NCBI RefSeq assembly: GCF_003334765.1 | Contig: NZ_QOWT01000001.1 | DNA: 64,000 nt | Origin: Escherichia coli | GTDB taxonomy: Bacteria > Pseudomonadota > Gammaproteobacteria > Enterobacterales > Enterobacteriaceae | Reading direction: 5' to 3' (one strand) | Shown here: positions 1,984 through 2,102 of the stretch, piece after piece | How the letters are laid out: each line of letters starts with the position of its first letter | Numbering within the stretch: the stretch's first letter is position 1 | The notes under the pieces: generated by a model | The model's database searches: none | What the model saw: only the letters and a program-made list of their open reading frames with translations | Told to the model about the DNA's origin: nothing | Position numbers and translations under genes: made by a program

Positions 1984-1999
1984 GATAAAACTCACTAAA

Positions 2000-2015
2000 C
2001 TGTCGATACGTACAG
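2000..2015 (-). promoter_or_regulatory. LexA (SOS) box CTGT-N8-ACAG upstream of ydjM
   Basis: CTGTcgatacgtACAG read directly at 2000-2015; additional CTGTA half-site repeats at 2011-2035. Confidence 0.7.
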
Positions 2016-2102
2016 TATAGGATTTTTATACAGTGCACGGAAGTGGTGACGGTGTAACTCTTTCTCTTAAATTGACGATTAATCCGTCAGTTGAATGCAA
2101 TT

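Follow-up and report, generated by a model that had tools for sequence, protein, structure and literature searches.

LexA operators of the Gammaproteobacteria are recognized by a 16-bp palindrome, CTGT-N8-ACAG, lying inside a 20-bp site of the type TACTGTATATATATACAGTA. Operators in which more than one such site is present are the closest described systems with which the control region of the SOS gene ydjM can be compared. In the colicin operators, as at ydjM, a strong site overlaps a weak one at the terminal positions; two LexA dimers bind there, repression is tight, and cooperativity between the dimers has been shown, whereas at ydjM we infer it. As a difference, descriptions of the colicin operators place their boxes immediately downstream of the -10 element. 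The centre-to-centre distance in the colicin operators is shorter than at ydjM. The operator of lexA itself resembles that of ydjM in having two tandem boxes immediately before the coding sequence, but differs in that both are full palindromes (20.6 and 18.2 bits), are placed 21 bp apart and have no bases in common. Boxes 2 and 3 of the Escherichia coli recN gene combine, as at ydjM, a stronger site (TACTGTACACAATAACAGTA, 17.5 bits) with a weak one (TAATGGTTTTTCATACAGGA, 13.7 bits); the two are likewise 18 bp apart, have the dinucleotide TA in common, and the degenerate half of the weak box faces the strong box. However, a third box of recN, a very strong one, lies another 22 bp upstream, and the order in recN is the reverse of that at ydjM, with the weak box being nearest the ATG. 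The geometry of the recN boxes was checked directly on the E. coli sequence.

The ydjM operator has also been described in its own right. The gene stands in the standard SOS regulon table, and its RNA increases after DNA damage or replication inhibition (by up to log2 2.6, and elsewhere by 2.5- to 8.6-fold). In PMC4951493, tandem LexA-binding sites of E. coli ydjM are given as experimentally reported, with Fernandez De Henestrosa 2000 as the source; for in-vitro binding of LexA to these sites this is a second-hand report. The exact 20-mer of the distal box, CACTGTATAAAAATCCTATA, is listed at -52 of b1728 ydjM as a second LexA site (PMC4576408, Table 2), and for Salmonella ydjM two SOS boxes are listed, one 14 bp from the ATG with a heterology index of 9.12 and the other 32 bp from it with an index of 12.85 (PMC8072944, Table 1). 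A full-text literature search for the 20-mer of the proximal box returned no match. The membership of ydjM in the E. coli LexA regulon, with two boxes, has been accepted since 2000, and the second box has since been re-found computationally. The feature described below is a rediscovery of this documented tandem operator and is already known: the gene and the two sites are the same, the 20-mer of the distal box is identical, and the 14- and 32-bp distances of Salmonella are those seen here. Nothing of substance differs from the published boxes; what is added is how widely they are conserved, together with a few variants found in nature. A gene of the YdjM family is also controlled by LexA in Staphylococcus aureus, through an unrelated SOS box of the Firmicutes type (PMC11442139); thus, SOS control of this family recurs across phyla. 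The role of YdjM itself in the SOS response is the more interesting question, and one that lies outside the reach of the present finding.

Sequence and geometry of the two LexA boxes

The window, i.e., the whole stretch of DNA that we analyzed, comprises 64,000 nucleotides of an E. coli contig (NZ_QOWT01000001.1, assembly GCF_003334765.1), on whose minus strand ydjM is encoded, with its RefSeq-annotated ATG at position 1983 (CAT at 1981-1983). The predicted protein matches the Pfam family PF04307 YdjM with E = 2.4e-35. On the gene strand the operator region reads cgtgCACTGTATAAAAATCCTATACTGTACGTATCGACAGTTtagtgagttttatcATG, and within it are two 20-bp LexA boxes (Table 1), of which the proximal one contains a perfect palindrome and the distal one a single good half. 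The two are 18 bp apart and have the dinucleotide TA (2016-2017) in common; on the gene strand, the ATG follows box 1 after 14 bp and box 2 after 32 bp. The good half of box 2 is the outer one, ACTGTA, which corresponds to TACAGT at 2029-2034; its inner half is degenerate, with CCTA in place of ACAG. The arrangement is therefore that of a strong-plus-weak tandem, in which two sites overlap at their ends and one of them is degenerate.

Table 1. Coordinates of the features of the ydjM control region in the 64,000-nucleotide window
Feature	Position	Strand	Description
ydjM coding sequence	1393..1983	-	196 aa; open reading frame; YdjM family inner-membrane metal-dependent hydrolase; gene under the operator's control
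LexA box 1 (proximal, stronger)	1998..2017	-	TACTGTACGTATCGACAGTT; perfect CTGT-N8-ACAG at 2000-2015
Candidate -10 element CTATACT	2014..2020	-	C at -13 plus TATACT; would span the junction of both boxes
LexA box 2 (distal, weaker)	2016..2035	-	CACTGTATAAAAATCCTATA; CTGT-N8-CCTA, one good half
Conserved upstream block	2045..2058	-	GTTACACCGTCACC; candidate -35-like element (GTTACA) or site of another factor
Terminator hairpin of hxpB (yniC), the gene upstream of ydjM	2113..2144	-	14-pair stem, then T-rich tail; inverted repeat

The original prediction, made from the letters of the window, had proposed a canonical CTGT-N8-ACAG at 2000-2015, which is indeed there as CTGTCGATACGTACAG, together with direct repeats of TACAGT at 2011-2016 and 2029-2034, which are likewise present, 18 bp apart from start to start, and constitute the sole direct repeat in the interval 1940-2150. 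The distance of 17 bp that it gave from the palindrome to the ATG is correct as a coordinate difference, with 16 bp intervening; to have the palindrome directly abut the start codon is an overstatement, there being these 16 bp between the core and the ATG and 14 bp between the 20-bp box and the ATG. Both TACAGT copies had been counted as extra LexA half-sites. We find that the second is truly additional, while the first is simply the canonical box's own ACAG with the adjoining bases. Nor is the spacing non-canonical, as had been supposed, for the distal half belongs to a full-length 20-bp box in normal register, the last two bases of which are common with box 1. The central suggestion of tandem LexA binding agrees with what PMC4951493 relates, with PMC4576408 and PMC8072944, and with the scores and conservation presented here.

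The scores come from a symmetrised weight matrix for which Table 4 of PMC3009722 supplied the 18 LexA sites, none of them from ydjM. On this matrix, box 1 attains 14.9 bits and box 2 13.2 bits, which rank first and second, respectively, among the 63,981 positions of the window, the next best position reaching 11.0 bits; a scoring of this kind was among the checks that had been proposed for the prediction. The 18 accepted sites themselves range from 13.2 to 28.0 bits, and both ydjM boxes fall inside this range. The score of box 2 is divided very unequally, with 11.6 bits contributed by its outer half and 1.6 bits by its inner half. The third-best score in the window belongs to a minus-strand site at 24853-24872 (TGCTGTTTTCATAAAAAATA, 11.0 bits), which features one good half-site only.

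Counts of the bare motifs are within the reach of chance. The window has two copies of CTGT-N8-ACAG against an expectation of 0.83, and at least two occurrences are seen in 21 of 100 shuffles; TACAGT has 26 copies against 17.9 expected, and about 0.16 same-strand pairs of it within 30 bp of each other are expected per window. The full-length LexA sites of ydjM are beyond chance. Local shuffling of the A+T-rich 95 nt adjoining box 1 yielded a site of at least 13.2 bits at exactly +18 in two of 20,000 trials, and at any position of that stretch in 47 of 20,000; when the whole window was shuffled, sites reaching 13 bits or more numbered 0.47 per 64 kb, and pairs at +18 were absent. The other exact CTGT-N8-ACAG of the window, CTGTTGCCGATAACAG at 56198-56213, is outside the 25 best matrix scores in the window and was therefore treated as a chance occurrence, which it probably is. 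The LexA box of cho (ydjQ), which had been expected to serve as a positive control within the window, is absent from it because the window extends from ydjM toward pfkB and not toward cho.

Conservation of the operator and its natural variants

We compared 80 species-level YdjM loci from the Enterobacteriaceae, with the counts being given over 81 sequences. In 79 of these, a distance of exactly 18 bp separates the two sites that score best upstream of ydjM, and in 66 the proximal box is 14 bp from the ATG; the 18-bp pair is also retained in Erwinia, Klebsiella and Shimwellia. Thus, one of the small additions made here is that the combination of a strong with a weak box, along with its 18-bp register, is conserved across the Enterobacteriaceae and into the Erwiniaceae. 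Within box 1, the CTG and CAG of the arms are invariant in the 81 sequences and the centre is free to vary; the sole change in the arms is a T to G at position 6 in 17 sequences, a variant that also occurs in accepted LexA sites, such as those of ruvA and cho (PMC3009722). Fixed arms and a variable centre are what a LexA site would be expected to show. Box 2 keeps its outer ACTGTA in 78-79 of the 81 sequences, and its non-consensus inner half, CCTATA, is invariant.

A few lineages depart from this arrangement. The distal CTGT has been lost in Citrobacter amalonaticus S646 (AGATGGATAAAAAACCTATA) and in Intestinirhabdus alba (AGCCTGGCAAAAATCCTATA); in Leclercia adecarboxylata a 1-bp insertion places the distal half-site at 19 bp, and in Pantoea a 1-bp deletion places it at 17 bp. 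Hence, box 2 is dispensable, or its position flexible, in some lineages. Among 5423 E. coli genomes, 5370 show an identity of 99% or more across 101 bp. One of the 5423, that of E. coli NIPH17_0036 (NZ_AP024561.1), has a 7-bp deletion inside box 2 at about 2019-2025 (CACTGTATAA-------ATACTGTACG), which collapses the spacing of the two CTGT motifs; the deletion represents either a naturally mutated operator or an error in the assembly. Natural variants of these kinds, namely loss of the distal half-site, 1-bp shifts of spacing and the 7-bp deletion, could serve as ready-made mutants of the operator.

Conservation extends to an entire 75-bp block, beyond the positions pertaining to LexA alone, so that by itself it does not tell LexA binding apart from a promoter function. 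Most relatives have a short-chain dehydrogenase gene (adh_short) upstream of ydjM, where E. coli and Shimwellia have hxpB; on the downstream side, the same neighbour, an SDF-family symporter (tcyP), is found throughout. The operator block is conserved despite the differing upstream gene and therefore travels with ydjM.

Promoter geometry and the proposed mode of repression

The best match to a -10 element on the gene strand of the intergenic region is TATACT (2014-2019), with five of six positions matching. It is contained in a stretch, CCTATACTG, that is invariant in all 81 Enterobacteriaceae sequences and retained in Erwinia, Pantoea, Klebsiella and Shimwellia. Together with the C at -13, TATACT resembles the preferred -10 sequence of sigma-S/sigma-70. 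The invariant CTATACT would then be the -10 element, which would account for the inner half of box 2 never drifting toward ACAG. The alignment hints that this non-consensus half of the weak box perhaps has a dual role, doubling as a -10 element.

Upstream of box 2, GTTACA (2053-2058) sits exactly 17 bp from the yACTGT of that box and is kept in 96-100% of the 81 sequences: it is invariant in the gapped alignment, while in the ungapped count one column is invariant and the others stand at 0.96-0.99. The GTTACAGCGTCAC of the same upstream block is kept in Erwinia and Pantoea. This block could be a -35-like element or the site of another regulator. Most Enterobacteriaceae carry GTGACAAAGAGTTACACCGTCACC in the region equivalent to 2045-2070 of the window, with a GTGAC...GTCAC inverted repeat, of which the window retains only GTTACACCGTCACC, the left arm being missing. 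A scan of 1850-2250 for consensus promoters recovered no full sigma-70 promoter, and a relaxed scan gave weak candidates only; the repression geometry is therefore one that we infer. A genomic SELEX study predicts a "constitutive" sigma-70 promoter, CTGAAA-17-ATTAAT, in the yniC-ydjM spacer (PMC3946193). This sequence lies at 2078-2106 on the minus strand, upstream of the LexA boxes, and is not conserved outside E. coli; if that promoter is used, the boxes would be downstream of the transcription start.

We consider it very probable that the region is a tandem LexA operator, at which two dimers lie side by side on box 1 and the weaker box 2. In the mechanism that we propose, one dimer would occupy the palindromic box 1, 14 bp upstream of the ATG, and the other would occupy box 2, with its one good CTGT half-site and the terminal TA that it has in common with box 1. 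Between them, the dimers would occupy some 38 bp in the core promoter region and silence ydjM; upon DNA damage, RecA-stimulated self-cleavage of LexA would empty the sites and ydjM would be induced. If the CTATACT at the junction is the -10 element, both dimers would be positioned to occlude RNA polymerase. By analogy, the dimer on box 1 may help to fill box 2, i.e., the two LexA dimers at ydjM may act cooperatively.

The evidence from scores, conservation and promoter geometry also bears on other accounts of the distal hexamer. The least credible of these, to which we attach next to no weight, is that the hexamer TACAGT recurs just by chance in this A+T-rich intergenic DNA. The hexamer statistics are weak enough to invite it, with the 26 copies against 17.9 expected and the roughly 0.16 close same-strand pairs expected per window; nevertheless, the local shuffles produced a site of at least 13.2 bits in just 47 of 20,000 trials anywhere and in two of 20,000 at +18, the second TACAGT persists in 78-79 of the 81 species-level sequences, and box 2 has been published as a LexA site (PMC8072944, PMC4576408). 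Judged from the sequence comparisons, conservation and shuffles effectively exclude a chance origin. A more substantial challenge comes from the promoter-like signals, in light of which only box 1 might work, with the distal ACTGTA being conserved as part of a promoter, either as a -10-like yACTGT 17 bp downstream of GTTACA or as part of the TATAAA that follows. The almost invariant GTTACA, exactly 17 bp upstream of C/TACTGT, the conservation of the whole block including positions that LexA does not read, and the 1.6 bits of the inner half of box 2 are all in keeping with this. Yet PMC4951493 refers to an experimental report of tandem LexA binding at ydjM, the 20-mer of box 2 is second in 64 kb on a matrix derived from sites of other genes, and the E. 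coli hexamer, CACTGT, is without the T at -12. Moreover, the two species that are without the hexamer keep everything else, including CTATACT, which argues against the hexamer being an essential -10 element. We hence regard a promoter-only role as very unlikely, bearing in mind that a promoter role and a LexA role of the distal hexamer are not mutually exclusive.

It is also conceivable, if unlikely, that LexA binds both boxes independently, with box 2 being a low-affinity site that is filled only at high LexA concentrations, without cooperativity and with little regulatory effect. The score of box 2 lies at the lower end of what accepted sites reach, the heterology index of the second Salmonella box is high (12.85; PMC8072944), the spacing shifts by one bp in either direction in Pantoea and Leclercia, and cooperativity of LexA is documented for colicins and Verrucomicrobia and not for ydjM. 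Against this, the 18-bp register is kept in 79 of the 81 Enterobacteriaceae sequences and in Erwinia, the same 18-bp register is seen in recN, and so long a persistence would be unexpected of a useless site. Hence, it is the tandem operator with two LexA dimers that we favor. We would also advance a more tentative elaboration of it, with a modest chance of being right, under which box 2 would be deliberately half-degenerate: its inner half would be locked as the -10 element, and it would be bound via its outer half and the dimer on box 1. Along with boxes 2 and 3 of recN, it would then represent a distinct, conserved class of cooperative operators with an 18-bp register and a shared TA, to which the invariant GTTACACCGTCACC block might add a second input.

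The genomic setting of ydjM

The terminator hairpin of hxpB (yniC) is the upstream limit of the ydjM control region. The 1.6-kb stretch spanning ydjM and hxpB is matched in 5424 of 5426 complete E. coli genomes, and a scan of 1300-2900 against Rfam returned no RNA family and hence no sign of an RNA element. In several E. coli genomes, for example NZ_CM130020.1 and NZ_CP046716.1, the match to this stretch (1300-2900) is split in two by about 1 kb. The insert is annotated as an IS5-like IS903B transposase and apparently interrupts hxpB, as an additional fragment bearing the annotation "HAD-IA family hydrolase" is present in those genomes.
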